Of a stretch of 64,000 nt of DNA, positions 3,978-64,000 are shown piece after piece. How positions within the stretch are numbered: the first letter of the stretch is position 1; the number at the start of each line of letters is the position of its first letter. The position numbers and the translations under genes were made by a program. This DNA comes from Fidelibacterota bacterium (GTDB lineage: Bacteria; Fidelibacterota; SORT01). A model generated the notes under the pieces. The model had not been told where the DNA came from. It was given only the letters and a program-made list of their open reading frames with translations, and ran no database searches. The stretch lies in NCBI GenBank assembly GCA_022573815.1, contig JACZTG010000001.1, forward strand, positions 64,882 to 128,881. Reading direction: 5' to 3'.

Positions 3978-3978
3978 A

Positions 3979-8788: not shown

Positions 8789-8789
8789 T

Positions 8790-9533: not shown

Positions 9534-9545
9534 TAGAGGAGTGAA

Positions 9546-10190
9546 ATGAAAATATTTTTAGATACTGCAAATGTGGATGAGATTAAAGAAGGCGCTTCAT
9601 GGGGAATTGTGGATGGAGTAACAACAAATCCAACTTTAATCGCTAAAGAAGGTCGGGATTTTGAAACAGTAATAAAAGAAATTTGTGAACTTGTTGACGG
9701 GCCGGTAAACGCTGAAGTGGTAGGACTTAAAGTAGATGAAATGGTAGAAGAAGGCAGAAAGCTAAGAGAACTGCATAAAAACATCTGTGTTAAAATTCCT
9801 ATGACGGTTGATGGCATAAAAGCTGTGAAGATTTTAAGCAGTGAAGGAACTATGACCAACGTAACGCTGATATTTTCAGCACTTCAAGCGCTATTAGCCG
9901 CTAAGGCCGGAGCTACTTTCGTTAGCCCGTTTGTAGGCAGGATAGACGATATGGCAGCTGAGGGGATGAATCTTATTGGTGATATCAGGCAGATTTACGA
10001 TAATTACGGATATAAAACGGAAATAATCGTTGCGAGTATTCGGAACCCGATCCATGTGGTTGATTCAGCTTTATACGGAGCGGATATCGCTACGCTTCCG
10101 ATGAAAGTGCTTCATCAGATGGCAAAGCATCCTTTAACGGATATTGGCTTGAAGCAGTTCCTTAAAGACTGGGAGTCAATGAAATCATAA
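9546..10190 (+). CDS. Fructose-6-phosphate aldolase / transaldolase (short Tal-FSA subfamily)
   Basis: [13 protein letters not shown]...GVTTNPTLI and the Schiff-base Lys region. 214 aa, typical of FSA/TalC. Confidence 0.85.
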
Positions 10191-10210
10191 CAGGTTTTTG
10201 CATACGAAAG

Positions 10211-11341: not shown

Positions 11342-11346
11342 TTATT

Positions 11347-22204: not shown

Positions 22205-22206
22205 AT

Positions 22207-43459: not shown

Positions 43460-43494
43460 TAATAATATTATTAATAAATAAATAAGGATATAGC

Positions 43495-45249: not shown

Positions 45250-45273
45250 ATTTATAATTAGACAAGGATAATT

Positions 45274-47885: not shown

Positions 47886-49219
47886 AGAGCGCTCAACCAA
47901 ATTCATTCGCGCGAAACTTTAGTTGCGCCCCAATTTTGGCGTTTTTTTTCATTCTTCTTTCTTGTGACGGGAGAGATTTAACGGATGGCGGAAACGACAA
48001 CGGAATTACCACACAATTTAATTTAAGCGTAATGTCCGACGAGCTGAAGGTAACGTTAAATTGGGATAAAATCAGTGATGATAATCTTGATTTATATAAC
48101 ATTTATCGTTCAGAGAATGAAGGCGAATTTATTTTATACGATACAGTAAATATTGCTTTAAATACATTCAGCGACACAGAAGTGACTGCTGATTTTATTT
48201 ATGAATATAAGATAACTGCGATATTTGACGGCATCAGAGAATCCGACCCGTCAGAAATTGTGAGAATTATTCCCGGATTCACTAACCTTTGGGTATTGGA
48301 CTTTCAGGGCGATGTTTTAAGTGAATTGACTCATGATGCAGCTCATTTTACCGGAAATTTTTTTGATAACTTGACGCTGCCGGTGGCGCTCGACATCGAT
48401 GAAAGAAACGGTTATATTTACTACATTGATGGATCGAATAAGACTCTTAATTTGGTTTTCGAAGGATCTGAACCATTACTTTTGACAAATGCTGAGGGGA
48501 ACGCTCAAATGTTTTCGGATCCGACTGATGTGGATTTTGATATGCTCAGAGATGAAATTTGGTTAACAAACGGCAATTCGGGCGCTCTGTTTCATTTCGC
48601 AATGATAAACCAATCCCAATGGGTCCTTTCCGATTCCCTAAATACAGGTGGAGACGCAATATACGGTCAGCTGGATATCGCAAGAGGGGATTATTGGGTA
48701 GTGAACAGTAAGGGAAAATCAATTGAAATATTTCAGAATAGAAATGGTGAATTTGTACAGATTTCAGCCACAGGCTTTGCGAGCGGAAACCTTACCCTTG
48801 CATTGGACGCGGATAGAGCAACGGCGTATGTCATAGACAGGTCAAACGGTGATATATTTTGGGTAAAGGCATCGGGGGAAACAACTTTAATAACTAATAT
48901 TAAAAATGCATTTTTAGCTGCGGTTGTGCCTTCTACAGGCGATGTGTGGCTTATTGCTGATGACGATGAGAATGGCATCGCAGATTTAGTAAAACTATCA
49001 ATCGTAGGAAGCCGTATACTGGAAATAATGAATCTATATTCTCAGCCCTCGTGGATAGGAGTAAATCCAATTAATATGAACGTTACAGTGTTGAACACTG
49101 CTTCAGGGGAAGTTAAAATTGATGTGTTATCCAATAGCACAGGGGAAAATATAAGTTCATTCAAATCTTTGAATTTTCCCGCAATTGCCCGAATTGTAGA
49201 TAAAAGAAATAGGATTTAA
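47858..49219 (+). CDS. Lipoprotein with an FN3-like domain and a predicted beta-propeller-like C-terminal region
   Basis: Lipobox FFFILLSCDG. The FN3-like segment runs LKVTLNWDKI...YEYKITA. It overlaps the pilC 3' end by 28 nt, so the true start may be an internal alternative start codon. Confidence 0.45.
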   Translation: MGNVRGSEIKSAQPNSFARNFSCAPILAFFFILLSCDGRDLTDGGNDNGITTQFNLSVMSDELKVTLNWDKISDDNLDLYNIYRSENEGEFILYDTVNIALNTFSDTEVTADFIYEYKITAIFDGIRESDPSEIVRIIPGFTNLWVLDFQGDVLSELTHDAAHFTGNFFDNLTLPVALDIDERNGYIYYIDGSNKTLNLVFEGSEPLLLTNAEGNAQMFSDPTDVDFDMLRDEIWLTNGNSGALFHFAMINQSQWVLSDSLNTGGDAIYGQLDIARGDYWVVNSKGKSIEIFQNRNGEFVQISATGFASGNLTLALDADRATAYVIDRSNGDIFWVKASGETTLITNIKNAFLAAVVPSTGDVWLIADDDENGIADLVKLSIVGSRILEIMNLYSQPSWIGVNPINMNVTVLNTASGEVKIDVLSNSTGENISSFKSLNFPAIARIVDKRNRI

Positions 49220-49234
49220 ATTTTATAGAAGAAA

Positions 49235-51256
49235 TTGAAAGCATTTTCTAAAAACTTCATTCTTTTACTTCTGCCTTTGCTGGTTTTTTTTGTTGTCTAC
49301 ATCGGAGATACGGTATTTAAGATTAATACCGGTGTAGTAGAAGTATTAGCGTGGCTAAGAGAATTATTACTTCTTGGAGCTATCGCAGGACTTGTGCCTC
49401 TTCTCTCTTCGCTGAAGATTCTTAATCCCGGCAAGACAACAGCAAAATTCAGAGTATTACTTTTCGTTGTTATAGCATTTTTTGTAGTTTCCGTCGTTCA
49501 CAAATTTGTTTTAGTCCCAATATTCGGTACTCTCAATGGATATGTATTGATATCCATAATCTACTCTTTTTTAAGCATTATAGGGTTGATCCAAATTCGG
49601 GACCTCATCTACTTTAAAAGAAAAAAAAATACCGGCAAAGTATTTGCCGCGCTAATCATATCAATTTCTATGGTTTCTATATATGGCGGATTAAGCTCAA
49701 AAGATTTTCAGCAAATATTGGGCATAGTGATGATTCCAATCGGATTCGCAATATTCAATTCGTTTAGGGTTTCATGGATCGCTTATTTGTCTAAGAGTCA
49801 AAAATACCTGGTTTTACTCTTCTGTATGATTTTAGTTGCCGGATCATATTTTTTAAGGGATTTGGTTATAGCATCAGCATTATTTGAATATAGCTACAGT
49901 GTAGAAATATTTGTACATCTTGCCACAACTTCAATCTCTATATATACGTTTTTTGGAATGGTTGGCTTACTGCTTCACCTTCCGACAGCAACGTTATTCG
50001 ACCGGAAAATAAGAGATATTGAGTCTCTTCAAAGTCTCAGCCGGGCGGTGAGTTCGGTTTTAGATGTAAGTAAACTCACGGAGATGATTTCAGAATTCAC
50101 TGCTGAATATTCCAACTCACAATACTCGTGGTTGGTATTAAGAGAGCCTGATGATGACGAATTTTACCTTATGTCAAGTCATGGACTCACAGAAGAGCAA
50201 CAAAATAATATGAGTTTTAAAATTGACGAGGGAACAAGCGGCCTGATTTTTAAAAGCGGCGAACCTTTGATTTCTCAAGATGTGGCAAGAGAAGAAAGCA
50301 CCAAGCACTTAAAATTCTGGAATGCAGGAATAAAATCACTTATAGGATATCCCCTTATATCCGAAGCGGGAGTTATAGGTATTCTCTACGCCGGAATGAA
50401 TGAAGAATACGGATATGATAATGACGACATAGACTTAATAGGCGCATTCTCAAATCATATAGTAATCGCATTGGAAAATGCTAAATTGGTTGAAGGGTCC
50501 ATCGAAAAAGAAAGACTCGAACATGAGCTTAGACTTGCCCACGAAGTACAGCTGAATCTTCTTCCGAAGGGTGTTCCGGATTTACCCGATGATTTCGACA
50601 TCGCTGCTGCCAGTATGCCGGCTAATGAAGTTGGCGGCGATTATTTTGATTTCATTGAGATTGATGAAAATCGTATCGGACTTGTTATCGGCGATGTTTC
50701 AGGCAAGGGAACATCAGCTGCATTCTATATGGCCGAAATTAAAGGGATGATTCAAGCCTACAGCAGAATTTATGATTCACCACGTAAAATATTATGCGAT
50801 GTAAATCGCGCACTATACGGTAATCTGGACAGCCGCTCCTTTATATCGCTTACCTACGCCATTGTGGACAGTAAAAAACATAAAATGAAGTACTCAAGAG
50901 CCGGACATATGCCTATACTGCGCTATCTCGAAAAAGAGAACGAATGGTCCGAATTGGAGCCAAAAGGGATAGGATTAGGTATGGATAAAGGCGATATCTT
51001 CGATAAAGTTATCGAAGAAGCGGAAATAAAGCTTAAAAGTGACGAGCTTTATTTCTTTTACACTGACGGCGCTTCGGACGCGATGAATCATAATCAGGAG
51101 GAATTTGGAGAAGAAAAATTGAGAATATCGTTAACAAAACATTATCACTTGAGCTGCGAAGAGATAAAAGCCAACCTGATTAATGATATTTGGAAACATA
51201 TCGGCAAACAAGATGTGCATGACGATATAACGATGATTATTATGAAAATTAAGTAA
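49235..51256 (+). CDS. Membrane-anchored GAF-domain PP2C/SpoIIE-family Ser/Thr phosphatase (RsbU-like)
   Basis: About 7 N-terminal TM helices, a GAF domain, and a C-terminal PPM domain with HEVQLNLLP and EVGGDYFDF. Typical of RsbU/SpoIIE phosphatases. Confidence 0.8.
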   Translation: MKAFSKNFILLLLPLLVFFVVYIGDTVFKINTGVVEVLAWLRELLLLGAIAGLVPLLSSLKILNPGKTTAKFRVLLFVVIAFFVVSVVHKFVLVPIFGTLNGYVLISIIYSFLSIIGLIQIRDLIYFKRKKNTGKVFAALIISISMVSIYGGLSSKDFQQILGIVMIPIGFAIFNSFRVSWIAYLSKSQKYLVLLFCMILVAGSYFLRDLVIASALFEYSYSVEIFVHLATTSISIYTFFGMVGLLLHLPTATLFDRKIRDIESLQSLSRAVSSVLDVSKLTEMISEFTAEYSNSQYSWLVLREPDDDEFYLMSSHGLTEEQQNNMSFKIDEGTSGLIFKSGEPLISQDVAREESTKHLKFWNAGIKSLIGYPLISEAGVIGILYAGMNEEYGYDNDDIDLIGAFSNHIVIALENAKLVEGSIEKERLEHELRLAHEVQLNLLPKGVPDLPDDFDIAAASMPANEVGGDYFDFIEIDENRIGLVIGDVSGKGTSAAFYMAEIKGMIQAYSRIYDSPRKILCDVNRALYGNLDSRSFISLTYAIVDSKKHKMKYSRAGHMPILRYLEKENEWSELEPKGIGLGMDKGDIFDKVIEEAEIKLKSDELYFFYTDGASDAMNHNQEEFGEEKLRISLTKHYHLSCEEIKANLINDIWKHIGKQDVHDDITMIIMKIK

Positions 51257-51295
51257 CAATAAGCGTTTCAGAACGTAAATAGCAGGGAGAGATAA

Positions 51296-51652
51296 ATGCA
51301 AACAGACATAATATTGAAGAGAGAAGACATTAATGGAGTCTCGGTAATTCACGTCGGAGGATACCTTGATGCTCATACAGCAACAAAATTCGAATCGTTA
51401 ATACTCGAGTTGACCAATGCAGAAAGATATAAACTCATCCTGAACTTCAAGGAACTTGATTACATTTCAAGCGCCGGATTGGGAGTTATTATGGGAAATA
51501 TCGAAGAGATACGGAATCATGATGGAGATATCAAGCTGTCTGATATGGGCGAGAAAATTTACAGAGTATTTGATTTAGTGGGATTCCCGAGTTTGTATGA
51601 CATATTCGATACTCAGAAAGAGGCTGAAACTGCTTTCGAAAGCAAAAGCTAA
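51296..51652 (+). CDS. STAS-domain anti-sigma-factor antagonist (RsbV/SpoIIAA-like)
   Basis: 118 aa. The conserved phosphorylatable Ser context is LDYISSAGLGVI. Confidence 0.8.
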   Translation: MQTDIILKREDINGVSVIHVGGYLDAHTATKFESLILELTNAERYKLILNFKELDYISSAGLGVIMGNIEEIRNHDGDIKLSDMGEKIYRVFDLVGFPSLYDIFDTQKEAETAFESKS

Positions 51653-51666
51653 ACGGGGAGAGAATA

Positions 51667-52104
51667 GTGTCCAACAAAGATTTTATACTGAAAATTCCCA
51701 CTCGCAGCACAAACCTGAAAATAATTCGTGATTTTATAATGGATGTTTCCGACAAAGCGGGATTTGAGAACGAAGCGTGCTGTGATATTGCGCTTGCGGT
51801 TGATGAAGGATGCACAAATGTTATAAAACACGCATATAGGGGTGGCGATGGCAAGGATATTATAATAAACGTCAAGTATGATAAAGAAAAAATAACTATT
51901 ATCATATCTGATACGGGTAAAGGATTTGATTCAGAGGTTTATGAAACCCTTGATTTAGAGGAATACCTTATAAAATTGGAAAAGGGCGGATTAGGAATTC
52001 ACATTATGAAAAATACAATGGACGAGATTGATTTTAGGAAGGAAAAGGATAACATTAATTCCGTTCATATGATAAAATTTTTACCGCAGGAGAGTGCAGA
52101 TTAA
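51667..52104 (+). CDS. Anti-sigma regulatory factor Ser/Thr protein kinase (RsbW/SpoIIAB-like GHKL ATPase)
   Basis: HATPase_c N-box DEGCTNVIKHAY, G1 DTGKGF, G2 GGLGI. 145 aa. GTG start. Confidence 0.75.
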   Translation: MSNKDFILKIPTRSTNLKIIRDFIMDVSDKAGFENEACCDIALAVDEGCTNVIKHAYRGGDGKDIIINVKYDKEKITIIISDTGKGFDSEVYETLDLEEYLIKLEKGGLGIHIMKNTMDEIDFRKEKDNINSVHMIKFLPQESAD

Positions 52105-52165
52105 AAGATGAATTCCAATTCCTTTGAATAAGTAATGATACAGTCGTATTTTACTTCTGCCATTT

Positions 52166-53893
52166 ATGCAATATAATAACACAAACAGAAAATATCTCGA
52201 AGAGAGAGAGCAGGATCTGCATGATCTTTTTGAAGTAAGCAAACGACTGGATAGCTTAACTAATTTCGATTCCATTATCGGACAGATGCTTCTCTCATTA
52301 ATGGGGAGATTGATGATACAGAAATCTGTATTTATCATCATGAATGAAGATAAAGATGAACTCAGTCTCTGCAAGGCAAAAGGACTTAATCAATTTGAAG
52401 AAGGGACGGTAATAAAATACAATAAATTACCGGAAGAATTTTGCAAGTTGGAAGCGCTCAAGAAAGATGAGCCCTTGAGGGATTATTTAGAAAGCGAAGA
52501 CCTTGAAGTGTTGTTTCCTATGATGAAAGCAGGCAGATTGATGGGTCTCCTTGCATTCGGAAAAAGGTTCAAAAACGACGAATATGAGAAAGAAGAAATA
52601 AATTATGTTTCTTCGCTACTGTCTTTAACAGCTTCATCAATAGAAAACGCACTATCCATAGATAAGATAAACAGTATAAACCGGGGACTCGACAGAAAAA
52701 ATCAGGAACTCCAGACTCTTTTTGAACTGGGTAAAGAATTAAACTCCACGTTAGATCAGGAGACTATAGTAAGACAATTCGGCTATGCTCTGATGGGGCA
52801 AATGATGGTAGGCAGGTTTCTAATCTATTTAATCAGCGACGACTCTCTAAAGATATTTCACAATAAAGGTTTCAGCGGCGAGCATGTTGAGAGTATTCAT
52901 CCGTGCTTAAAAGAGCTGGAAGATTTAAACGAAATATTGCTTGTGCAGAAAAAGAAAGATAAACTAAACGGCATACTTGCCAAGGCTCAAATAGCTGCTG
53001 CTATTCCTCTCTCGATCCAGGGTGAAAATAAAGGGGTGCTTTGTATAGAGGAAAAAAGAGGGACAGAACAATTTTCTGATGACGATTTACAGCTTCTGCA
53101 TACCATGGGCGGACAGGTGATAATTTCTTTAGAAAATGCGAGACTCTTTAAGGAATCGCTTGAAAGACAACGGTTGCAGGAAGAACTGAACATTGCCAGG
53201 GAAATACAACAAGGTCTGCTTGCATCTGATTTCAATGTCTCCGGCGGGTGGAAGATATTCGGGAAGAATGTTCCCAGCCTGGAAGTTGGCGGAGATTACT
53301 TTGATGTGATTAAATTGGATAACGGTAAAATAGCGCTAGCTATCGCTGATGTATCCGGAAAGGGAGCCGGCGCCTCACTGCTTATGTCGAATCTGCAGGC
53401 AAGCTTGCGCGCCTTAGTCAATGTTGATACAAATCTTGGTTCAATGGTGGCAAGGATAAATAATATCCTGTATCAAAATACATCAGCGGATAAATATATA
53501 ACCTTTTTCATCGGGATTCTTGACCCTGACAAAAGAACATTCACGTTTTGCAATGCGGGCCATAACCCACCTCTAATATTCTCCCAAAACGGTAATGTGA
53601 CCGAGCTCGAAGAGGGAGGTTTAATAATCGGGGTGATGGCTGGAGCAATTTATAAGGTTGGAAATGTCGTGTTAGATGATGGGGACACTATCGTAATGTA
53701 CACAGACGGAATTACGGAAGCAGAAAACGAAAAAGGTGAAGAATTCGGCGAGGAAGGCTTAAAGAACCATGTAAAAAGAAACCTAAAGTCTTCCCCTGAG
53801 GAGCTGATAAACTCTATAATAGAGGAAGTAGAAAGCCACGCTGTTGATTTGTCGGCCCAGGATGATGTGACACTACTTATTTTTAGCGGTTAA
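52166..53893 (+). CDS. Cytoplasmic GAF-domain PP2C/SpoIIE-family phosphatase (second RsbU/RsbP-like)
   Basis: Two GAF-like regions followed by a PPM domain with REIQQGLL and EVGGDYFD. No TM segments. Confidence 0.8.
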   Translation: MQYNNTNRKYLEEREQDLHDLFEVSKRLDSLTNFDSIIGQMLLSLMGRLMIQKSVFIIMNEDKDELSLCKAKGLNQFEEGTVIKYNKLPEEFCKLEALKKDEPLRDYLESEDLEVLFPMMKAGRLMGLLAFGKRFKNDEYEKEEINYVSSLLSLTASSIENALSIDKINSINRGLDRKNQELQTLFELGKELNSTLDQETIVRQFGYALMGQMMVGRFLIYLISDDSLKIFHNKGFSGEHVESIHPCLKELEDLNEILLVQKKKDKLNGILAKAQIAAAIPLSIQGENKGVLCIEEKRGTEQFSDDDLQLLHTMGGQVIISLENARLFKESLERQRLQEELNIAREIQQGLLASDFNVSGGWKIFGKNVPSLEVGGDYFDVIKLDNGKIALAIADVSGKGAGASLLMSNLQASLRALVNVDTNLGSMVARINNILYQNTSADKYITFFIGILDPDKRTFTFCNAGHNPPLIFSQNGNVTELEEGGLIIGVMAGAIYKVGNVVLDDGDTIVMYTDGITEAENEKGEEFGEEGLKNHVKRNLKSSPEELINSIIEEVESHAVDLSAQDDVTLLIFSG

Positions 53894-54163
53894 TTAAGGT
53901 TTTTTTAATTTAATTATGGGGAACTATTACTATTCTCCGATGTATAATTTTTAAATGCACACAAATTTAAAAAATGGCGTATAGAAAAGGTCTTGACAAT
54001 TCTTTCGTGTGATACTACCTTGGTGCGCTGACTAATAAAATTTAAAGAGGGCATATATTATTATTGTTACAGTATTGTTCAAAAAGTATCACCGGGTTTT
54101 AAGGATTACGGGCAGGTTGTTCTAAAGCAACCGTTCCGAATAAAGATTTTAAAGGAGAAACTG

Positions 54164-55282
54164 ATGACAAGAACTGTAATAGCAGCCCTTTTTCTGCTGG
54201 CTCTTACATTTAATACCACAACATTAAAAGCTCAAGGCGAAGCTGGCGCGCCTTTTTTATTGATAGCTCCGGGTGCGCGCGCAAGCGGGATGGGCGAAGC
54301 GAATGTTGCATTAGCCGATGACGCGGTTGGCGGATTTTATAATCCTGCCGGTATTGCATGGGCGGAAGGCAAAAATCTAACATTTATGCGCGCGAAGTGG
54401 CTTCCAAATTTAGTCGATGACATCAGTTATAATTTCTTAGGTTATAGCCAATATGTAGAGGGTCTTGGTTCAATCGGAGGTCATATAATATACCTTGATC
54501 TCGGAGAACAGGTGAGAACCGGAGAAAGTTCACCTGATGCATTAGGTACCTTTCAATCTTTTATGCTTGCGGTAGCAGGCACTTACGCCGCGGATCTCGG
54601 TGAAAATTCTGCGGTAGGAATTAGCGTTAAATTCGTACATCAGGACCTGGCGCCATTTGGAGCCGGACAGGAAAAAGGAAGCGGCTCATCCTCTTCCTTC
54701 GCATTTGATGTAGGTCTGTTAGCTCGAGATAAAATTGTCGGCGGACTTGATTTGGGTATTGCTATTGCTAATATAGGTCCGGACATCGCATTTATTGATG
54801 CTAATCAGGCTGATCCGATGCCGATGAATTTAAAAATGGGTCTCTCATATATGCTCTTCGATGGAGAATTTAATTCCCTGCGAATAGTGTATGATATGAA
54901 CAAGCTTCTCGTGGCTTCATATCCTGATAGAGATTTAAACGGCAATGACATAATTGACATTGGAACTGATGAAGAAGCCCATAAAGATCCATTTTACAAA
55001 GCATTTGTTACTTCGTGGACTGATGATTCTGCAAATATTGAATGGCAGAAGATCATTCATAATTTTGGCGTCGAATATTGGTATTCAGGGGTGGTAGCGC
55101 TTAGAGCCGGCGTATTCAGAGATTATTTACTTAAAGATACAGATAATAGTGTCGCACTTTTTAAAACTGTTGGTGTGGGTCTCAGGTATAATACCTTAGG
55201 TTTCGATTTCGGCTACGTAGATGGTCCCGAAGGACATCCGATTACCAACACTATGCGTTTAAGTTTTAATCTGGCTTTTTAG
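54164..55282 (+). CDS. PorV/PorQ-family outer-membrane beta-barrel protein (type IX secretion shuttle-like)
   Basis: Signal peptide, then the family-typical PGARASGMGEANVALADDAVGGFYNPAGIAW. About 370 aa. Ends in an aromatic residue. AAGGAG RBS. Confidence 0.6.
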   Translation: MTRTVIAALFLLALTFNTTTLKAQGEAGAPFLLIAPGARASGMGEANVALADDAVGGFYNPAGIAWAEGKNLTFMRAKWLPNLVDDISYNFLGYSQYVEGLGSIGGHIIYLDLGEQVRTGESSPDALGTFQSFMLAVAGTYAADLGENSAVGISVKFVHQDLAPFGAGQEKGSGSSSSFAFDVGLLARDKIVGGLDLGIAIANIGPDIAFIDANQADPMPMNLKMGLSYMLFDGEFNSLRIVYDMNKLLVASYPDRDLNGNDIIDIGTDEEAHKDPFYKAFVTSWTDDSANIEWQKIIHNFGVEYWYSGVVALRAGVFRDYLLKDTDNSVALFKTVGVGLRYNTLGFDFGYVDGPEGHPITNTMRLSFNLAF

Positions 55283-55346
55283 AACACTTCAGCTAATAAT
55301 TTTACACAGGTGCATGGCAGTTGCCGGTCCTCAAAAAGCGAATTCA

Positions 55347-58300
55347 ATGTTGAATCTGTTTCCCGATAGAATAAAAACATTCGTTTTCGTTATAATCTTA
55401 TTTTTTGTATCAGGAATTGAAGCGGCGGAAAACGGATACAGAGTTAATTTTCATAATTATTCTTCAGGTTTAAAGAGTTCTGTTATAAGTCAAAGTGTCT
55501 CAATAGCGGCTATCAGGGTTCAGTTTGTGGAAGATGACGAAGAAGGTACGACGGGAAACGGATTGTTCGATCTTTCATCACCATCGGCAGGCGATGATTT
55601 TATATTCGATCCGCCGCCGCATAACCGGAGATATTTTCAGGCGCATTTGGAATCGCTTAACAATTATTTTAATTCGGTAGGTCAATCCCGATGGGGAATT
55701 GGTGGGATCAATTCAACCGTATTCCCGCTTCTAACGGATAGCGTGTATGATCTTCAAAATCCGATGCGGTTTTATAGCCCGAAATCAGATGAAGAAACCA
55801 ATGATAAACGGTTGGCGCAGCTTTTCTACGAATCTGTAATTTTAGCTGCGGATGATGCGGGAAATTACTCGGGAACTGACTTAGTTATTGTTTTTCATGC
55901 TGGAGTTGGAAAGGATTTTACATTTCAACTCGACCTCACACCGTTCGATATTCCCTCGGCTTTGCTCGACAGAGATTTTCTTCAGCTGAATTTGGCTTCT
56001 TCTGAATTTTCCCAATTAGAAAGTTTGGGAGTTACCACCGGATTGATACTTCCGGAAACACAAAGTCAGGATGGTTTCAATATTGCGCTAAATGGTACTA
56101 TTACTTTGCTGTTCGGCAGGTTTTTAGGATTACCCTCTTTATGGAACACGGATACTGGCGACCCTGGAATCGGAAAATGGGGATTGATGGATCAAGGTTC
56201 AAATAATATGGATGGAGCTGTCCCAGCTCGCCCGAGCGCATTCAGCAGAGTATTTATGGGATGGGAATTGGATATACCAGCATATCCGAGTGAAGGAAGA
56301 GAAATATTCACTGCCGCTGACGAGTTTGGCATTAAATATTATTCTATTAAAATCAATTCAGATGAATATTTTTTGATTGAAAACAGAAGCAGAGCTACAA
56401 CAAATAAAACGGGATTCGAAGAGCTTATAGTCGGAAGAGATACCGCTTATGTAAAGTTTGATTCCTTAGGAAGCGGCGTAATAGTTAGTGTATCAAATTA
56501 TGATGCGGGAATTCCCGGCTCGGGACTGCTTATCTGGCATATAAATGAATCTGTCGTGAAAGAGTTTTACTCCACAAACCGGATTAATACAGATAAAGAA
56601 AACAGGGGAGTAGATCTTGAAGAGGGGGACGGTTCGCAGGATATAGGAGAAGAATTTGGATTCTTGCAGCCCGGGGGCGGTTCTGAAAACGGCACGCCTT
56701 GGGATCCTTTTTACGCTAAGAATCCCGCCTGGTATTTCCAAAATCCTGATTGGGAAGCGGATGCTGATTCCACAGTGGCATTTACGCCTGAGACCAGCCC
56801 AAACAGCAATAGTAACGCAGGTGGCAAAACAGGAATTAGTATAACAAATATTTCCAAAGCGGGTTTAAGAATGACCTTTGATGTTGCTTCAAGCTTTCTT
56901 GCTGTGGGGTTCCCATTATATCTGGGCGCCGGAGCGGGAAGGAGTTTTCCTGCAGTTGCCGACTTAGATGGAGACGGAAATATAGAGATATTAGTGGCAA
57001 CGTCGGATGGAACTATACACGGCTGGACACTGATACTCGATAGACTTCCATTAGTTTACTTGGGAGGTGGTGATACAGAAAATATAGTATCCACATTCGG
57101 AAATGTAACTACAAGCCATAGAATCGGAATATTCGCAGATTCGGTAGGTTCTATTAGTAATATCGCAATAAGCGACATAGACGGAGACGATACACTTGAA
57201 GTTGTGGTAGTTACTAAAAATGGCAAAGTGATAATGTATGAGCCGGAAGAAGGGGCGGTTATTGATAATCGCGCCGACAGCGCCTGGTCAATCTATCTTG
57301 GCGAAGAAGTGTTAGCAACTCCAATTGTATCCAACGGAAGAGTTTATGTAGGCAGCTTAAGCGGCACAATTTCGGAGATTAACAGCAGCGGGAATCTGAT
57401 TAATTCGACTGCATCCGCTATTGAAATTCTAAGTATGACATTACCGGATGGTGAAGCTGTCAAAGGTTCAAACGACAATATTATTTCCGGTAATTTTTTA
57501 CAGAACCGTAAATCGCTTGGTTCTGAACCCGAAGATTTAATTGTGACTATTTCCGCGAAAGGAATTGTGAGGGTTTTTATCGGTACAAACACGGATCTGG
57601 TCAACGCTGATTATGAATATGATATGGGCGACAGTGTACTTTCCTCTCCCGCAATGGCAGATATAGATAAAGATGGTGAACTTGAGATAATAATAACAGG
57701 GAATAATAAACTTTGGGCGTTTAACGGGAATTTGACACTTGTGGAAAATTTCCCTGTCACAATCGGTATTCCGGAACCGGTCGGTAAGATATTATCGTCG
57801 CCTGTTATAGGAGATGTTGACGGCGACGGTTCACCGGAAATAATTTTCGGAGCTCCTGACGGAAAGATTTACGGTTATCATTCGGATGGAACTGTGGCGG
57901 AAGGTTTTCCTCTTTCAACGGGAGCAAGCGTGAGCTCAACGCCTGTTATAGTTGATGCGATTCCGTCAGGCGCAATGGAAATCGTGGCAACGAGTGACGA
58001 TGGTTGGCTGTATATGTGGTCTGTGCCCGGTAACGGAACAGCTGGAAATACTCCGGCTTATCTTCCGTGGAGCGCATTTGCCGGCTCGAACGAAAGAACA
58101 AATTTTGCTCCCGCTTCACCGAGTTCACCTCCTGTAGGAATAAATGAACTGCTTGCTCAGGATAAAGTGTTCGCTTATCCGAATCCCGTGGAAGGGAGTG
58201 AAGTGCGGATACGGTATTTTGTTAATCAATCCGGCAGTGTTGATATAATGATATTTGATATGGCAGGTGAGTTTGTAACAAAATTGCTTAACTCCAACAT

Positions 58301-58436
58301 AGTTCAAAATGAATATAACGAAACGGTTTGGAATGTAAAAAACGTGTCAAGCGGAGTCTATTTAGCCAGGGTAACCGCTCATGGATTATCCGGCGGGCTG
58401 TCGTCTAAAGTTATTAAAGTGGCAGTTGTAAAATGA
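55347..58436 (+). CDS. Large secreted FG-GAP/VCBS-repeat protein with a T9SS C-terminal sorting domain
   Basis: Signal peptide from the internal M at 55347. Repeated DxDGDG calcium-binding FG-GAP motifs include DLDGDGNIEILVATSDG, DIDGDDTLEVVVVTKNG, DIDKDGELEIIITGNN and DVDGDGSPEIIFGAPDG. The C-terminal about 80 aa, VFAYPNPVEG...SGVYLARV...KV, matches the Por secretion CTD. Confidence 0.65.
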   Translation: MLNLFPDRIKTFVFVIILFFVSGIEAAENGYRVNFHNYSSGLKSSVISQSVSIAAIRVQFVEDDEEGTTGNGLFDLSSPSAGDDFIFDPPPHNRRYFQAHLESLNNYFNSVGQSRWGIGGINSTVFPLLTDSVYDLQNPMRFYSPKSDEETNDKRLAQLFYESVILAADDAGNYSGTDLVIVFHAGVGKDFTFQLDLTPFDIPSALLDRDFLQLNLASSEFSQLESLGVTTGLILPETQSQDGFNIALNGTITLLFGRFLGLPSLWNTDTGDPGIGKWGLMDQGSNNMDGAVPARPSAFSRVFMGWELDIPAYPSEGREIFTAADEFGIKYYSIKINSDEYFLIENRSRATTNKTGFEELIVGRDTAYVKFDSLGSGVIVSVSNYDAGIPGSGLLIWHINESVVKEFYSTNRINTDKENRGVDLEEGDGSQDIGEEFGFLQPGGGSENGTPWDPFYAKNPAWYFQNPDWEADADSTVAFTPETSPNSNSNAGGKTGISITNISKAGLRMTFDVASSFLAVGFPLYLGAGAGRSFPAVADLDGDGNIEILVATSDGTIHGWTLILDRLPLVYLGGGDTENIVSTFGNVTTSHRIGIFADSVGSISNIAISDIDGDDTLEVVVVTKNGKVIMYEPEEGAVIDNRADSAWSIYLGEEVLATPIVSNGRVYVGSLSGTISEINSSGNLINSTASAIEILSMTLPDGEAVKGSNDNIISGNFLQNRKSLGSEPEDLIVTISAKGIVRVFIGTNTDLVNADYEYDMGDSVLSSPAMADIDKDGELEIIITGNNKLWAFNGNLTLVENFPVTIGIPEPVGKILSSPVIGDVDGDGSPEIIFGAPDGKIYGYHSDGTVAEGFPLSTGASVSSTPVIVDAIPSGAMEIVATSDDGWLYMWSVPGNGTAGNTPAYLPWSAFAGSNERTNFAPASPSSPPVGINELLAQDKVFAYPNPVEGSEVRIRYFVNQSGSVDIMIFDMAGEFVTKLLNSNIVQNEYNETVWNVKNVSSGVYLARVTAHGLSGGLSSKVIKVAVVK

Positions 58437-61399
58437 CGCTATTCCGATTTTTCAGTTTAATTCTGGCTTACTTATTATCCGCAAATGTTGTTGTTAATGC
58501 CCAATTTCAACGTAATAACCATACAGAATTAAATTGGAAAACGATCGAGACCGAACATTTTAGCGTAACTTATCATCAAGGGCTGGAAACTTCTGCTGGG
58601 CGTGTTGCAAAGATAGCAGAGGAAATCTATCATCCCGTTACGGCTCTGTATAATTATGAGCCTCAGAACCCGATTCATTTTATAATTCAGGACACTGACG
58701 ATATATCCAACGGCGCCGCATATTTTTATGATAATAAAATCGTTATCTGGGCGTTACCTATGGACTACGACCTCCGCGGAACGCATAACTGGCTTCGGGA
58801 TGTGGTTACTCACGAATTTACTCATATAGTGTCAATGCAAGCAGCAATGCGATTCAACAGACATATTCCGGCTCTCTATTTTCAGTGGTTTAGGTATGAG
58901 AATGAACGACGTGATGATGTCGTCAGAGGATTTCCAAATGGGATAGTTTCCTATCCTTACGCGGGACTTACGGTGCCTTTGTGGTTCGCCGAAGGAGCGG
59001 CTCAGTATAACAGCGGTACATTAAAGTATGACCATTGGGATTCTCATAGGGATATGTTATTGAGGGAGCGGTCACTCAACGGGTCTCTGTTAAACTTGGA
59101 TGATATGGCGGTTTTCGGGAAAGTCGGCATTGGAAACGAGAGTGTTTATAATCAGGGATATTCATTTATAACCTATATTGCTGACCGGTTCGGAGAACAA
59201 TCAATAAGTAAGATAGCTAAAGCATTTTCCTCAACGCTTCCGATTTCCATCTCCGGCGCTATAAAGAAGGCAACAGGGATTGAGGGAGAGATAGTTTTTG
59301 AAGATTGGAAAAGAAAAATTGGCATTGATTACACTGGCAACACCAATATCATTCAGCAGAACCTTGCAGAGGGAACGGTAATAAGCAAAGGTGGAGCCGC
59401 GAATTTGTTTCCTACATGGTCGCAAGACGGCAACAAAATCGCTTATCTGTCGAGCAAGAATCATATATCTTTTGGACGTACTGACTTAATGCTGTTCAAC
59501 GCAGAGAATGGAAATAGTGAGAAAATCGCTTCTTCAGTCGGTACTTCACCTTCATGGTCACCCGACGGAAACGAGCTGGTTTACGGCAGGGTAAGTAAGC
59601 CGGATAAACACGGATCGACATATTTTGATCTGTACCGCTACGATATTAAGAAAAAGAAAGAGAAAAGACTCACTCACGGAAGCAGAGGAAGGTATCCGGC
59701 ATTCTCTCCTGATGGTAAGGAGATTGTGTTTGTCACTACTAATGACGGCGCAAGCAGTTTGATGGTTTACGATATCAAGACCGAAACGATAAGAGAATTA
59801 TTGAGTTTTGAGGAGATAAGACAAGCCTATAAATTGGATTGGTCGCCTGACGGAAATTCAATACTCTTTGAAACTTCTACAGAAAACGGAAGAGATATTG
59901 CGCTCGTTAATGCCGATGGCAGCGAATTCAGGATGCTTCTGAATAGCCCGGCGGATGAACGTCACCCTGTCTTTTCGCCTGATGGCGAAAAAATATATTA
60001 TTCCTCCGATAAAACGGGCATATTCAATATTTATTCATATGATTTGACCAATAGTGAGACTAAACAATGGACTAATGTTACAGGCGGCGCTTTTATGCCG
60101 TCGGTTTCTTCAAAAGGAGAACTGAGCTATTCGCGGTTTGAGGGGACAGAATATAAACTTTCGCTATTGAAGCTGGGAAACGAGGTAAAACCTGAACATT
60201 CGGTTTATAATAACTATCTGGAGACTTTGCCAACAGTTGATTATGACCAAAATTCTCTCCCGGAATATGAATCAAAAGAGTATGTGGCCACCACCATGAC
60301 TACGTTTTTTATGCCTCGATTGATGATTGATTACGGCACCGTAAAGGTGGGTGGATATGTTTTCTCCAACGAGCTGCTCAATAAAATAAGTGTCATCGGA
60401 GGAGCAACAATCAACAAGGATTACGATTACGATTTATACCTTCGATTCGATTTCAATCGTTTATCGCCTAATATTTTTATTGAAGCGTACGGGATTTCAC
60501 AAAACGTAGTAGATTCGTTGGTGTTACCCGGTCAAACTACTCCACTTGATATAAAGTTCAATCTAAAGGAAGTGTCTCCGGGGATGACTTTTTACAGGGG
60601 AGTGAAAGATCAGTTCACTTTCAGACTAACGTATAGTATTTATTCTGCCTCTCAATCAGGATTTCTTATAGATGATTTCGGTGGTTTAGTTAAAACTTCG
60701 TTCGGTTATGATTACTTCATAGGTAGGTCGGCATCGGTGGAATGGGGAAGAGACAATAGAGAGAGAACTGCAAAGAGTTATATTGCGAGAGATAACGGTA
60801 TGCGGTGGCGTTTATCATACGCATATAAGCGGGATAAATTCATAGTTGATTTTGCTCGAAATGAAGATTTCGGAACAATTGAGGAGGTCTTTATCCCATT
60901 TAATTATCAGCAATTGGATTTGAATATTGATAAATATTTCAGCCTTCCCGGCAATAGCGCACTTGCCTTGAATATAGAAGGTGGTTATATTTCTAATAAC
61001 GTAAACGACTTTCTCCACTACTTTGGAGGAGGCCTCCTTGGGATGAAAGGATATTCGTATTACAGCTATGGTGGCGAGCGAAAAATACTCGGCACGGTAA
61101 CGTTAAATGCTCCTATATCAAATGGGATTAACAAGGCTTTATTAAACCTTTACATTAGGGATTTATATGGCGGAATTTTCTTCCAATACGGAGATGCATG
61201 GATAGGAACAGCGAGGATAAATGAATTCAAACGGACGGTCGGTTATTCCATCAGAGTTGGCGCTTATTCGTTCTATGCTTTTCCAACGGCATTCGAATTT
61301 CAGGCTGCGTATGGACTCGATAAATTCAGTGATGAGCAAGGAATCGTCCGGGGAAATGAATGGCGATATTATTTTACGCTTTTGTTTGATTTTCTCTAA
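58433..61399 (+). CDS. Outer-membrane protein with an N-terminal HExxH metallopeptidase-like region, TolB-like PD40 beta-propeller repeats and a C-terminal beta-barrel
   Basis: Signal peptide. HExxH as VVTHEFTHIV. Repeated SPDG motifs (WSPDGNELVYG, FSPDGKEIVF, WSPDGNSILF, FSPDGEKIYYSSDKTG). A C-terminal about 400 aa with alternating beta-strands ends in FDFL. ATGA coupling to the upstream gene. Confidence 0.55.
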   Translation: MTLFRFFSLILAYLLSANVVVNAQFQRNNHTELNWKTIETEHFSVTYHQGLETSAGRVAKIAEEIYHPVTALYNYEPQNPIHFIIQDTDDISNGAAYFYDNKIVIWALPMDYDLRGTHNWLRDVVTHEFTHIVSMQAAMRFNRHIPALYFQWFRYENERRDDVVRGFPNGIVSYPYAGLTVPLWFAEGAAQYNSGTLKYDHWDSHRDMLLRERSLNGSLLNLDDMAVFGKVGIGNESVYNQGYSFITYIADRFGEQSISKIAKAFSSTLPISISGAIKKATGIEGEIVFEDWKRKIGIDYTGNTNIIQQNLAEGTVISKGGAANLFPTWSQDGNKIAYLSSKNHISFGRTDLMLFNAENGNSEKIASSVGTSPSWSPDGNELVYGRVSKPDKHGSTYFDLYRYDIKKKKEKRLTHGSRGRYPAFSPDGKEIVFVTTNDGASSLMVYDIKTETIRELLSFEEIRQAYKLDWSPDGNSILFETSTENGRDIALVNADGSEFRMLLNSPADERHPVFSPDGEKIYYSSDKTGIFNIYSYDLTNSETKQWTNVTGGAFMPSVSSKGELSYSRFEGTEYKLSLLKLGNEVKPEHSVYNNYLETLPTVDYDQNSLPEYESKEYVATTMTTFFMPRLMIDYGTVKVGGYVFSNELLNKISVIGGATINKDYDYDLYLRFDFNRLSPNIFIEAYGISQNVVDSLVLPGQTTPLDIKFNLKEVSPGMTFYRGVKDQFTFRLTYSIYSASQSGFLIDDFGGLVKTSFGYDYFIGRSASVEWGRDNRERTAKSYIARDNGMRWRLSYAYKRDKFIVDFARNEDFGTIEEVFIPFNYQQLDLNIDKYFSLPGNSALALNIEGGYISNNVNDFLHYFGGGLLGMKGYSYYSYGGERKILGTVTLNAPISNGINKALLNLYIRDLYGGIFFQYGDAWIGTARINEFKRTVGYSIRVGAYSFYAFPTAFEFQAAYGLDKFSDEQGIVRGNEWRYYFTLLFDFL

Positions 61400-61417: not shown

Positions 61418-62188
61418 ATGAAATTTAATTATTTAATATTAGCCATCTGTCTTTTACTCGCAGCGTCAGATTCTTTCGCTTCCGATAAAAACAGGGGGAG
61501 AAAAATAATTCTTGATTCGGGAGAAACGGTCGAATTTGCTTATTTCAGCGAAGAATCACCTGCGCAGGACAGCTCCGGAAATCGAGTGGTTGTGAAACGT
61601 CCCGGTATATCTTTCCTGAGTTCGGCAATTATACCCGGAGCGGGTCAATACTATAACGGCTCAAAAAAACGAGCCGCAGCATTTTTAGCGGTTGAAGTGG
61701 GTCTATGGGTAGGCTATGCTGCGTTTCAAGGTAAGGGTCGCGATAAGGAGGATGAATATCAGGCTCTTGCAGACCAATATTGGGATTTTACCAGGTATAA
61801 TCCGACAGAAGATGAACAATCACAGGGCCATACTATTCCGCTTGATGCCAATGATAATGTGATAAAAACTAATGAATATTATGAAAATATCGGGAAGTAC
61901 GATAAGTTTAACAGAGGATGGGAAGGGGCGATTATAGGTTCCAATTCAACGACAACGGAAGAAAGGGAGGTGTATCTGAATCTTAGAAAAGACTCCAACG
62001 ACTTCTTTGGATTGGCAACCACAGCAGCTTCTTTAGCGATACTCAATCATATATTGTCCGTGGGTGACGCTATATTTACGGCTAAAAAGCTAAATGACGA
62101 AGCGTCGCTGAAAATATCTGTCAAACCGTTACCAACCGGAAAAGGAAACGAATTTGTGAACGCACTTTCGATCGGTATCGCATGGTAA
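61418..62188 (+). CDS. Hypothetical exported protein (DUF5683-like hydrophobic hairpin)
   Basis: Signal peptide. FLSSAIIPGAGQYYNGSKKRAAAFLAVEVGLWVGYAAF resembles a DUF5683 membrane-embedded segment. Confidence 0.4.
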   Translation: MKFNYLILAICLLLAASDSFASDKNRGRKIILDSGETVEFAYFSEESPAQDSSGNRVVVKRPGISFLSSAIIPGAGQYYNGSKKRAAAFLAVEVGLWVGYAAFQGKGRDKEDEYQALADQYWDFTRYNPTEDEQSQGHTIPLDANDNVIKTNEYYENIGKYDKFNRGWEGAIIGSNSTTTEEREVYLNLRKDSNDFFGLATTAASLAILNHILSVGDAIFTAKKLNDEASLKISVKPLPTGKGNEFVNALSIGIAW

Positions 62189-62985
62189 ATGTTAAAATGA
62201 AATTTTTAATTATTATATATATATCGGCTATTGCGTTATTCCTGACAGGGTGTGGTTCAAAGAAGAACAACGAACTGGAGCCTGTGGATGTTCGCTTCGA
62301 AAGAGGAATGGAGTATTTTCAAAAGAAAAAATATTCCAAATCCATAATCGAATTTAAATTTGTTACCTTTAACGCACCGGCAAGTGAAATTGGCGACGAT
62401 GCACAATTCTATCTGGCTGAGGCGCATTTCTATTCGAAAGAGTATATTCTCGCAATCTCTGAATACGAGCGGTTGGTTCGAATACATCCTGAAAGCCCGC
62501 TTGTGGATGAAAGCCAGTATAAGAGAGCGCTTTGTTTCGATATACTTTCCCCAAAATCTTATCACGATCAGGAAAATACGATCAAAGCCCTTGACGCATA
62601 TCAGGAATATATTGAGGAATGGCCTCAAAGCGAAAATAAAGAAAAAGCAGAAGGCCGCTTGGATAAATTGAGGTTCAAGCTGGCAAAAAAAGTATATGAT
62701 GCCGGAATGCAATATCGAAAATTGGATGAGTGTAAATCATCCATCATATACCTTCGACAGGTATTGGATAAGTATTATGATAGTGAGTTTGCGCCAGGGG
62801 CGCGCTGGAACATCGCAAGGTGTGAAATAAAACTTGAAAACTGGAGTGATGCGCTGGCAATGCTTATCGAAATTATCAATCGTAATGACGATTCTGAATA
62901 TCTGAAAAAAGCACAAGAAGTATTGCCTGAGGTAAGAGAAAATGCGGAAAAATCTGAAGAACAAGCCCTTTTAGAAGATAACTGA
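62182..62985 (+). CDS. bamD: Outer-membrane protein assembly factor BamD-like TPR lipoprotein
   Basis: Lipobox LTGCGS. BamD/YfiO-like TPR arrangement. 267 aa. Confidence 0.65.
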   Translation: MVNVKMKFLIIIYISAIALFLTGCGSKKNNELEPVDVRFERGMEYFQKKKYSKSIIEFKFVTFNAPASEIGDDAQFYLAEAHFYSKEYILAISEYERLVRIHPESPLVDESQYKRALCFDILSPKSYHDQENTIKALDAYQEYIEEWPQSENKEKAEGRLDKLRFKLAKKVYDAGMQYRKLDECKSSIIYLRQVLDKYYDSEFAPGARWNIARCEIKLENWSDALAMLIEIINRNDDSEYLKKAQEVLPEVRENAEKSEEQALLEDN

Positions 62986-63613: not shown

Positions 63614-63679
63614 TATTCCTTTAATTATCCGATAATATAACTGGAATAAGAATCTCAGCTATTATAAATTTCCCACATT

Positions 63680-63753
63680 GCCCTCGTAGCTCAGCCGGAT
63701 AGAGCGACGGTTTCCTAAACCGTAGGCCGCAGGTTCGAGTCCTGCCGTGGGCA
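63680..63753 (+). tRNA. tRNA-Arg (anticodon CCT)
   Basis: Manual fold: acceptor GCCCTCG/CGTGGGC with one T:T mispair at 5:68. D-arm GCTC-AGCCGGATA-GAGC. Anticodon arm ACGGT-TTCCTAA-ACCGT. T-arm GCAGG-TTCGAGT-CCTGC. Discriminator A. No encoded CCA. Confidence 0.8.
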
Positions 63754-63827
63754 CATAATTCAATCTGAAATACTGATAAATCAGCCGATAAATATCAGTG
63801 TTCATTGAGAGGTATAGTGCTGTGCGA

Positions 63828-64000
63828 ATGAAGATTTTATCAGCCACCTGTATTGTTATAGCTACGTTCCTGATAGGTTGCGAAGACCCGGACGTTATTC
63901 CGCCGACGATAAGTATCACTAATCCGGCGGACGGCGTCACACTGACAAGAGCGGTGACCATAAAAGTAGATGCCTCGGATGATGAAGCTGTGGATATAGT
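63828..64000 (+). CDS. Lipoprotein, N-terminal fragment (3' end lies outside the window), probable Ig-like domain
   Basis: ATG at 63828. MKILSATCIVIATFLIGCEDPD (lipobox LIGC) followed by a PADGVTLT...VDASDDEAVD BIg-like start. Confidence 0.4.
   Translation, partial: MKILSATCIVIATFLIGCEDPDVIPPTISITNPADGVTLTRAVTIKVDASDDEAVDI

Follow-up and report, generated by a model that had tools for sequence, protein, structure and literature searches.

Why, in a Fidelibacterota bacterium, is a gene for a PorV-like barrel followed by one for a very large protein with a type IX secretion system (T9SS) sorting domain, and this in turn by a second outer-membrane protein gene whose start codon overlaps the preceding stop? 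The genes lie in a 64,000-nucleotide stretch of DNA (assembly GCA_022573815.1, contig JACZTG010000001.1, positions 64,882 to 128,881), which was analysed as a whole and is called the window here; its own numbering is used throughout (Table 1). The original prediction for this DNA described a T9SS-linked block of three genes. All three open reading frames (ORFs) are present on the forward strand as it had them, and the ATGA stop/start overlap of the second and third can be read directly in the sequence. The unit, however, consists of four genes and not three, the fourth being a co-conserved DUF5683 gene. Genes 1 to 4, which encode PorV, an M6-like inactivated metalloprotease (M6i), an Omp85 protein with a peptidase domain (Omp85-peptidase) and DUF5683, are a deeply conserved outer-membrane operon of phyla of the FCB (Fibrobacterota-Chlorobiota-Bacteroidota) superphylum other than the classical Bacteroidota, here in its Marinimicrobia version. 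We consider it somewhat probable that this block is an outer-membrane accessory module of the T9SS, acting by a mechanism that we infer below.

The gene 3 family is large, with relatives in at least 554 GTDB species genomes and at least 150 clusters (50% identity) above 427 bits, most of them full-length or nearly so and some of them fragments. We compared gene order in 80 species loci around such relatives, the best-scoring 80 of the at least 554 species genomes. These loci come from KSB1, Calditrichota, Ignavibacteriota, Marinimicrobia, Kryptonia, LCP-89, Latescibacterota and variously labelled metagenome-assembled genomes (MAGs), many of whose taxon labels are unreliable. By tblastn, the order PorV, M6i, Omp85-peptidase, DUF5683, all on the same strand, was found in nearly all loci with enough flanking sequence, about 60 of 66. 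Of the 66 loci whose upstream flank reaches 4.6 kb or more, only three (L040, L042 and L061 in our numbering) lacked genes 1 and 2. Under stricter clustering, genes 1 plus 2 were recovered in 54 of 66 loci and gene 4 downstream of gene 3 in 61 of the 70 with enough flank, a shortfall that arises mostly because ORFs in MAGs are fragmented. The four-gene order held across at least six phyla. Because the same order recurs in dozens of species from several phyla, the arrangement is not a product of chance, and since the flanking genes vary between phyla, we ascribe it to selection on the block and not to general synteny. The lone gene 3 copy in L040 has housekeeping genes, and nothing else, around it.

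The idea that genes 2 and 3 work together, which the original prediction drew from their coupling, fits both this cross-phylum synteny and the frequency of stop/start overlaps: genes 2 and 3 overlap (-4 or -1 nt) or lie 0-4 nt apart in about 25 of 75 related loci, and the junction of genes 3 and 4 is similarly tight. In Ignavibacteria-type loci, genes 2 and 3 are separated by the gene for an additional predicted lipoprotein, about 220 aa long (L041:9318-9983, L032:9237-9998). This protein has a weak match to an FlgD Ig-like model (25.4 bits, cutoff 27) and looks like a lineage-specific fifth component.

The proposed link to the T9SS is upheld by the homology of gene 1 to PorV, by a C-terminal sorting domain (CTD) on gene 2 that scores above thresholds, and by the presence of PorU (32 loci) and SprA (7 loci) beside related cassettes. 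In about 30 loci, clustering of the flanking ORFs picked out a protein of roughly 1345 aa encoded immediately upstream of PorV; it is canonical PorU, the T9SS sortase (NF033707, 798 bits, cutoff 420, versus 140 bits on PorU2). By tblastn it adjoins PorV in 32 of the 80 loci, and in 29 of the 61 whose upstream flank is 8.8 kb or longer. Adjacency of PorU and PorV is known from Porphyromonas (PG0026/PG0027) and Flavobacterium. SprA/Sov (TIGR04189, 916 bits, cutoff 200) is divergently adjacent, at 170 nt, to the lone gene 3 copy in L061, an Ignavibacteria MAG in which SprA/Sov occupies 2326-8910 on the reverse strand and the Omp85-peptidase 9080-12196 on the forward strand; in six other Ignavibacteria-type loci SprA lies about 4 kb downstream of the cassette. 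According to PMC12611786, SprA is specific to FCB bacteria, and of the FCB phyla surveyed only Chlorobiota lack it. In L012, L041, L044, L050, L051, L064, L073, L077 and L081, genes resembling the lipopolysaccharide export permeases lptG and lptF lie directly behind the cassette on the other strand (locus coordinates about 13.7-16.7 kb, with L050 and L051 offset), and in L012, L041, L044, L051 and L064 they stand between the cassette and sprA.

PorV is a barrel of the FadL type; it moves proteins with a type-A CTD away from the SprA translocon. The assignment of gene 1 to the PorV/PorQ family, which is also its NCBI name ('PorV/PorQ family protein', MCH8927199.1), was correct, with scores of 248.4 bits on NF033709 (cutoff 90) and 88.4 bits on Pfam PF19572 (cutoff 27). 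Its sole sequence match in the PDB is the PorV of F. johnsoniae from the SprA translocon structure (6H3I_F, E 4e-26), aligned over residues 10-370, that is, at full length. On the PorV equivalog NF033710 it scores 196.6 bits (cutoff 250) versus 71 for PorQ and 46 for PorV2. On NF033710, gene 1 orthologues at the syntenic position in other phyla reach 169-268 bits, with four of nine passing at 257-268, and they always score far higher as PorV than as PorQ or PorV2. These similarities lead us to take gene 1 for a somewhat diverged PorV, the one proper to this lineage. It looks like the organism's general PorV shuttle rather than a barrel dedicated to the gene 2 cargo.

These scores bear on a different view of the locus, namely that it is a self-contained cargo cassette in which gene 1 is a dedicated PorV/PorQ paralogue, gene 2 a calcium-binding FG-GAP adhesin and gene 3 an anchoring or processing outer-membrane protein. 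The PorQ-PorZ and PorV-PorU pairs of Porphyromonas, named in PMC12365241, would be a precedent for it, and both the position of gene 1 under the PorV equivalog cutoff and the separation of PorU from PorV in this lineage fit. We nevertheless hold it to be very improbable, as the gene 1 orthologues are far better PorV than PorQ or PorV2, several of them above the PorV cutoff, and stand directly after PorU in 32 loci, while the unit includes a fourth conserved gene; no second PorV was seen, in a search that did not cover whole genomes.

Gene 2 had been taken for an FG-GAP cargo protein with a CTD. Both the repeats and the CTD are there, but the pseudo-protease that makes up the N-terminal half was missed, and the whole resembles a machine component. 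Its length of 1030 aa holds for the ATG at 55344, whereas from the first ATG (55314) it is 1040 aa; the gap between genes 1 and 2 is accordingly 31 nt (first ATG) or 61 nt (second ATG) and not 65. The N-terminus has a hydrophobic segment, a signal peptide ending IEA/AE. By far the best model for the protein is NF052323 (516.9 bits, E 1e-154, equivalog cutoff 600), and each of the 38 aligned homologues matches it (best 3e-210) as well as the models for the M6 domain and the type-A CTD. The family was curated by NCBI alongside NF052324 (PorU2) and NF052325 (PorV2). The architecture of about 1040 aa and the loss of HExxH are common to it and to gene 2 with its homologues; the neighbours here, in contrast to that curation, are of the canonical PorV/PorU type, with PorV2 scores of at most 72 bits (cutoff 325).

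Compared with the active M6 enzyme immune inhibitor A, gene 2 scores 46.7 bits on TIGR03296, under the cutoff of 110.8, and a scan of the whole protein found no HExxH anywhere. At the position of the zinc motif all 38 family members have (L/M/I/K/H/Q)(L/M/Q)(F/M)(G/A)(H/S/R/Y/F/A/N) followed by a conserved xLGxP, and the pair of first His plus catalytic Glu is kept in none of them (0/38). This pseudo-protease is the most conserved part of gene 2: conservation reaches 90% or more in 107 of its 466 positions. The FG-GAP repeats claimed for the protein are real: it passes the FG-GAP_3 and FG-GAP models, has four D-x-D-x-D-G/D motifs (aa 550, 621, 783 and 834), and its family profile matches designed and natural PQQ/FG-GAP propellers in the PDB. 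So is the sorting domain, which passes the cutoffs of both PF18962 (37.6 bits, cutoff 27) and TIGR04183 (32.4 bits, cutoff 23) and is unusually well conserved in the family (25 of 86 positions at 90% or more). By analogy with PorU and PorZ, which have CTDs, gene 2 behaves more like a machine component, a conserved single-copy pseudo-protease, than like cargo.

The comparison with the PorU-PorV(-PorQ-PorZ) complex has two sides. There, too, PorV is encoded beside large CTD-bearing machine parts and not beside cargo, PorU adjoins in the 32 related loci, and PorZ likewise combines propeller domains with a type-A CTD. In gene 2, however, the N-terminal half is a dead M6-like protease and the PorZ model matches the CTD only; no PorQ was seen here, and genes 3 and 4 are without counterpart in that complex. 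In the near-identical strain of L087, a missing gene call for gene 2 is explained by a run of N at about 5100-5133, and a pseudogene or true absence was rejected in favour of this scaffold assembly gap. We found no paper on the NF052323 family and nothing relevant on PorU2, M6-like proteins or DUF5683; an apparent mention of 'PorV2' proved to be a citation superscript (PorV followed by reference 23) and not a protein name.

Gene 3, known at NCBI just as a 'PD40 domain-containing protein' (MCH8927201.1), was rightly called an outer-membrane protein as far as its barrel is concerned; more specifically, it has an Omp85-family barrel together with an intact metallopeptidase and a TolB-like propeller. 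These three domains are resolved in an AlphaFold model (pLDDT, the predicted local distance difference test, 89.8; pTM, the predicted template modelling score, 0.85) built from a 73-sequence alignment. Conservation was scored in 73 sequences from several phyla, with a Pfam check on 14 diverse homologues. All 14 match Peptidase_MA_2 at E below 1e-3 (best 1.2e-12). Gene 3 itself scores 28.4 bits on this model (E 1.7e-6), under the gathering cutoff of 32.4, and matches the NCBIfam flagellinolysin HExxH model at E 6e-9. The peptidase is the most conserved domain of the protein (76 of 281 positions at 90% or more), and its zinc-site residues are invariant in all 73 sequences. A ligand role for Glu187 is one that we assume from gluzincin precedent. 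With both an HExxH and a downstream Glu, the N-terminal domain is predicted from its sequence to be an MA-clan gluzincin with an intact site.

The C-terminal barrel of gene 3 has 16 strands and the Omp85 fold, with BamA and TamA as its best matches, and the TolB-like propeller stands N-terminal to it, as in the class known as WD40-Omp85. Pfam Omp85 (PF01103) does not match gene 3 and matches four of the 14 homologues (best 1.9e-7), and a profile search gave weak TamA matches (E 0.3-0.9). On the TolB equivalog TIGR02800 the protein reaches 149 bits against a cutoff of 343, the propeller alone aligning. The model contains no POTRA domain, only peptidase, propeller and a 40-residue linker before the barrel. 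The loop between barrel strands 11 and 12 has the highest mean conservation of all gene 3 segments (0.74), with F860, G866, G870, Y874 and G881 invariant and F864, G867 and G873 at 90% or more in the 73 sequences. Judged by its position, it would correspond to the (V/I)RG(F/Y) motif of Omp85 proteins.

A TolB-like propeller in place of POTRA domains before an Omp85 barrel is the hallmark that gene 3 shares with the WD40-Omp85 subfamily of the 2014 Omp85 survey by Heinz and Lithgow (PMC4104836). Term searches of that survey brought up no HExxH peptidase domain and no T9SS context for the class, and its 'Metallo' Omp85 class has a different domain, PF00149. The propeller also recalls TolB and the propeller-gated peptidases (DPP-IV/S9, tricorn), from which gene 3 differs in scoring well under the TolB cutoff, in being a zinc gluzincin and not a serine hydrolase, and in being anchored by a barrel.

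The predicted mature N-termini of PorV (…LKA/QGEAG; window 54164-54240) and of gene 3 (…VNA/QFQRN; 58433-58510) both start with glutamine, and in gene 3 this residue, Q24, is invariant or nearly so across phyla. They recall the Bacteroidetes 'Q-rule' for signal peptidase I substrates, which is stated not to hold across the whole FCB group (PMC5837995).

An enzyme at the N-terminus and a barrel at the C-terminus could also mean that gene 3 is a type Vd-like autotransporter, which would display its own peptidase and propeller on the cell surface and work there with the gene 2 pseudo-protease, for example in degrading nutrient protein. In type Vd proteins a POTRA domain separates the passenger from the barrel. 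An N-terminal enzyme ahead of a 16-strand Omp85-type barrel does parallel PlpD, which is treated in PMC4104836, gene 2 is predicted from its CTD to be at the surface, and the catalytic residues of gene 3 are invariant. In PlpD and FplA, however, the passenger is a patatin lipase, a POTRA is present and there is no association with the T9SS, whereas gene 3 has no POTRA, the closest relatives of its propeller are periplasmic TolB proteins, and a 550-residue two-domain passenger with a closed propeller would be unusual cargo for an autotransporter. Display of this kind seems to us quite improbable.

Gene 4 begins 18 nt after gene 3. It scores 25.9 bits on PF18935 (E 1.1e-5), under the gathering cutoff of 26.7, and many of its homologues have a precomputed PF18935 match; we treat it, on these similarities, as a divergent DUF5683 relative. 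The family has a signal peptide, invariant PGxG, YE..GKY, GW and NH..S motifs, and a C-terminal strand ending in W or F. In the model (pLDDT 74.5), two long, partly hydrophobic helices lie between low-confidence N- and C-terminal hairpins, and no solved relative emerged from a PDB sequence search or by fold (best Foldseek E 0.7). DUF5683 occurs as two tandem paralogues in many KSB1/Calditrichota loci (e.g. L002:13195-15065, L010:13066-14755; 94 proteins in 62 loci) and as one copy in the window and in other Marinimicrobia. Downstream of gene 4 the window has a gene for a BamD-like lipoprotein, and BamD followed by NadD is found behind the cassette in Marinimicrobia-type loci only. The BamD-like gene is thus a lineage-specific neighbour outside the pan-phylum unit.

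This neighbour, and the resemblance of the gene 3 barrel to BamA and TamA, bring up the possibility that genes 3 and 4 form a specialised device resembling the machinery for beta-barrel assembly (BAM), in which an Omp85 insertase, a BamB/TolB-like propeller and a quality-control protease would build large FCB barrels such as SprA and PorV. It would stand near porV as its clients are encoded there, and gene 2 would be an ordinary T9SS surface protein. WD40-Omp85 proteins have been likened to a BamA-BamB fusion by Heinz and Lithgow (PMC4104836), the BamD-like gene overlaps the end of gene 4 here, and the lone gene 3 copy of L061 is divergently adjacent to sprA. In the BAM of Bacteroidota (BamA-BamD-BamG-BamH, PDB 9N2D), moreover, BamA has a FadL-type barrel and an extracellular canopy as partners, and the bamA locus contains T9SS genes, namely porG and skpA in F. 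johnsoniae (PMC12611786). The combination of an Omp85 barrel, a FadL-family barrel and a large extracellular partner is thus common to both systems. In the Bacteroidota BAM, though, that partner is a lipoprotein, whereas here it would be delivered by the T9SS. Gene 3 further differs in having a peptidase and no POTRA, and gene 1 in matching PorV and not BamG. A role for gene 1 as a BamG-like subunit was rejected, given that it matches neither BamG nor other FadL-type barrels and has PorV as its sole match among solved structures. The adjacency of BamD is limited to one phylum, the tightest and commonest coupling of gene 3 is to gene 2, a CTD protein and not a barrel client, and for generic cargo gene 2 is too consistently single-copy in position, and its dead-protease domain and CTD are too strongly conserved. 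For these reasons we regard a BAM-like device as unlikely.

The reading that we prefer, an accessory module of the T9SS, can be put together from its parts as follows. Gene 2 would be exported by the T9SS and kept on the surface bound to PorV through its conserved CTD, by analogy with PorU and PorZ in Porphyromonas. At the surface it could serve as a binding or scaffold subunit without catalytic activity. Gene 3 would be its neighbour in the outer membrane, the peptidase and propeller pointing into the periplasm, a placement chosen because it is the standard topology of structurally characterised Omp85 proteins. There it may cleave or clear peptides or unfolded T9SS-related clients, candidates being stalled or misfolded clients and cleaved CTD fragments, with the propeller perhaps limiting what reaches the zinc site, in the manner of propeller-gated peptidases. 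Gene 4 would be a membrane partner of gene 3, and translational coupling of genes 2 and 3 would keep both proteins in proportion.

Several observations weigh against this proposal. PorU is not adjacent to PorV in the window, in Marinimicrobia, in Calditrichaceae or in most KSB1 loci. No core T9SS genes (porK/L/M/N, sprA, porU) were found in the 64-kb window, in which nearly all ORFs of at least 190 aa were scanned, nor within 10 kb past either of its edges, and the presence of a T9SS in this genome is assumed. Genes 1 and 2 both score below the cutoffs of their equivalog models. The gene 3 peptidase has no confident solved relative in whole-model searches, which were swamped by propeller and barrel matches, and a single-domain phmmer search with the N-terminal domain returned nothing meaningful. 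The membrane side of this peptidase is predicted solely by homology, and contacts among the four proteins are likewise predictions. Nor is any of the known subunits of the F. johnsoniae translocon and extended translocon like genes 2-4 (PMC10994853).

A further step would be to regard genes 2-4 as unrecognised structural subunits of the T9SS in the non-Bacteroidota FCB phyla. They would make up a protease-bearing Omp85 sub-complex that docks with PorV and the tethered pseudo-protease, and would act in cargo maturation, release or CTD clearance, which Bacteroidota handle differently, e.g. with PorQ/PorZ. We offer this tentatively, as a possibility that falls somewhat short of an even chance. 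If it is true, it would give the WD40-Omp85 class and DUF5683 their first functional assignment and would mean that an Omp85 protein has been recruited into a secretion system other than type V.

Each part of the operon is already known in kind: PorV, a curated pseudo-protease family, the catalogued WD40-Omp85 class and DUF5683. We found no paper on the conserved operon, on an intact gluzincin in an Omp85 protein, or on a link of these genes to PorU/SprA, and the locus provides a first genomic context for two uncharacterised families, the protease-bearing Omp85 barrel and DUF5683. The T9SS has so far been dissected almost entirely in Porphyromonas and Flavobacterium. An accessory module, if real, would be an outer-membrane arm of this system, with parts so far without a described counterpart, in Marinimicrobia, KSB1, Calditrichota, Ignavibacteriota and allied groups. 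Three uncharacterised families would likewise gain a role that can be tested (the Omp85 class catalogued in 2014, DUF5683 and the pseudo-protease named by NCBI). Many carriers abound in oceans and in sediments, and enzymes exported there as T9SS cargo presumably contribute to the breakdown of polymers. The hypothesis is directly testable because the HExxH site is invariant and cultured relatives have the cassette; the locus L066 is labelled Caldithrix abyssi DSM 13497 but comes from a MAG.

The operon appears to have its own regulation, as the original prediction had surmised from the DNA upstream of gene 1. That leader is AT-rich as described (31.5% GC versus 40.8% in the window), although its length is 270 nt (53894-54163) and not about 280 nt. 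A gap of about 270-330 nt separates porV from the preceding SpoIIE-type phosphatase gene in each of four Marinimicrobia lineages whose upstream regions we compared, and whose gene 2 proteins are 53-78% identical. In their alignment a TTGACA-17 nt-TAnnnT element is kept, made up of AAAAGG(T/G)CTTGAC(A/T)AT and, in the second hexamer, the T-A-n-n-n-T positions, within intergenic DNA that has otherwise diverged. A consensus scan did not list the element, the second hexamer being weak. Further downstream, an invariant block in the presumed 5' untranslated region (UTR) and the Shine-Dalgarno sequence of gene 1 are likewise kept in all four. No Rfam family matched the leader (53894-54163) even at E up to 1, no conserved secondary structure was found in the four lineages (consensus energy -0.4 kcal/mol), and just sequence blocks are conserved; a riboswitch or other structured RNA was rejected on these grounds. 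The sequence pattern speaks for a promoter of the operon's own and a 5' UTR of about 135 nt, and not for a structured regulatory leader. In this lineage the operon would thus have its own sigma-70-like promoter, about 165 nt upstream of porV.

Table 1. Features of the PorV-M6i-Omp85-peptidase-DUF5683 operon and its immediate flanks, in window coordinates.
Feature	Position	Strand	Basis or remark
Promoter-like element	53993..54021	+	TTGACA (53993-53998), 17-nt spacer, TACCTT (54016-54021)
Invariant GTTACAGT block	54066..54073	+	presumed 5' UTR; identical across four-lineage alignment
Shine-Dalgarno AGGAG for gene 1	54153..54157	+	6 nt before ATG; kept in all four aligned lineages
Gene 1: diverged PorV, T9SS type-A substrate shuttle barrel (predicted), 372 aa	54164..55282	+	NF033709 and PDB match
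Gene 2: T9SS-dependent M6-like inactivated metalloprotease (M6i), 1040 aa	55314..58436	+	NF052323; alternative start 55344
Gene 2 M6-like pseudo-protease domain (aa ~60-525)	55491..56888	+	TIGR03296 match at aa 270-364
Gene 2 degenerate zinc motif LLFGR	56106..56120	+	position of HEFGH in active M6 enzymes
Gene 2 FG-GAP/PQQ-like beta-propeller (aa ~535-940)	56916..58133	+	Pfam FG-GAP_3, FG-GAP
Gene 2 T9SS type-A C-terminal sorting domain (aa 955-1040)	58176..58433	+	PF18962, TIGR04183
ATGA overlap	58433..58436	+	gene 2 stop / gene 3 start
Gene 3: Omp85-superfamily protein with N-terminal gluzincin and TolB-like propeller, 988 aa, 'WD40-Omp85' class	58433..61399	+	
Gene 3 peptidase domain (aa ~30-310), MA-clan gluzincin-like, alpha/beta	58520..59362	+	Peptidase_MA_2
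Gene 3 HEFTH zinc-binding/catalytic motif (aa 127-131)	58811..58825	+	H127, E128, H131 invariant, 73/73
Gene 3 Glu187 in WFAEG, candidate third zinc ligand	58991..58993	+	W184, A186, E187, G188 invariant, 73/73
Gene 3 TolB-like beta-propeller (aa ~315-580)	59375..60172	+	
Gene 3 16-stranded Omp85-type beta-barrel (aa 621-985)	60293..61387	+	no POTRA before barrel
Gene 3 loop between barrel strands 11 and 12 (aa 854-882), Omp85 loop L6 position	60992..61078	+	GMKGY
Gene 4: DUF5683-like membrane protein, 256 aa	61418..62188	+	PF18935; starts 18 nt after gene 3
BamD-like lipoprotein gene	62182..62985	+	TIGR03302 129 bits (cutoff 81); overlaps gene 4 end by 7 nt

Directly upstream of porV on the same strand (49235-53893) is a partner-switching set, in which a GAF-SpoIIE phosphatase (673 aa) comes first, followed by a STAS antagonist (118 aa), then by a HATPase anti-sigma kinase (145 aa) and finally by another GAF-SpoIIE phosphatase (575 aa). 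Every Marinimicrobia relative examined (L085, L086, L091, L092) has this order too, and the set may regulate the operon.

The remainder of the window encodes housekeeping functions (DnaB, RelA/SpoT, Lnt, purine synthesis, GatA, MutL and MiaA), an operon resembling BatA/BatB/BatC/BatD (17709-22965) and a type IV pilus set (42674-49219) with prepilin peptidase, PilB-type ATPase, sigma-54 response regulator, PilC-type platform protein and an unannotated 453-aa ORF. On the reverse strand, at 26155-27417, lies a gene for a 420-aa protein that matches Pfam MATCAP (PF08014, the microtubule-associated tyrosine carboxypeptidase family) at E 5e-113. A tRNA-Arg (CCT) is located at 63680-63754 on the forward strand, and the 99-aa ORF that crosses it on the opposite strand (63662-63961) is almost certainly spurious.

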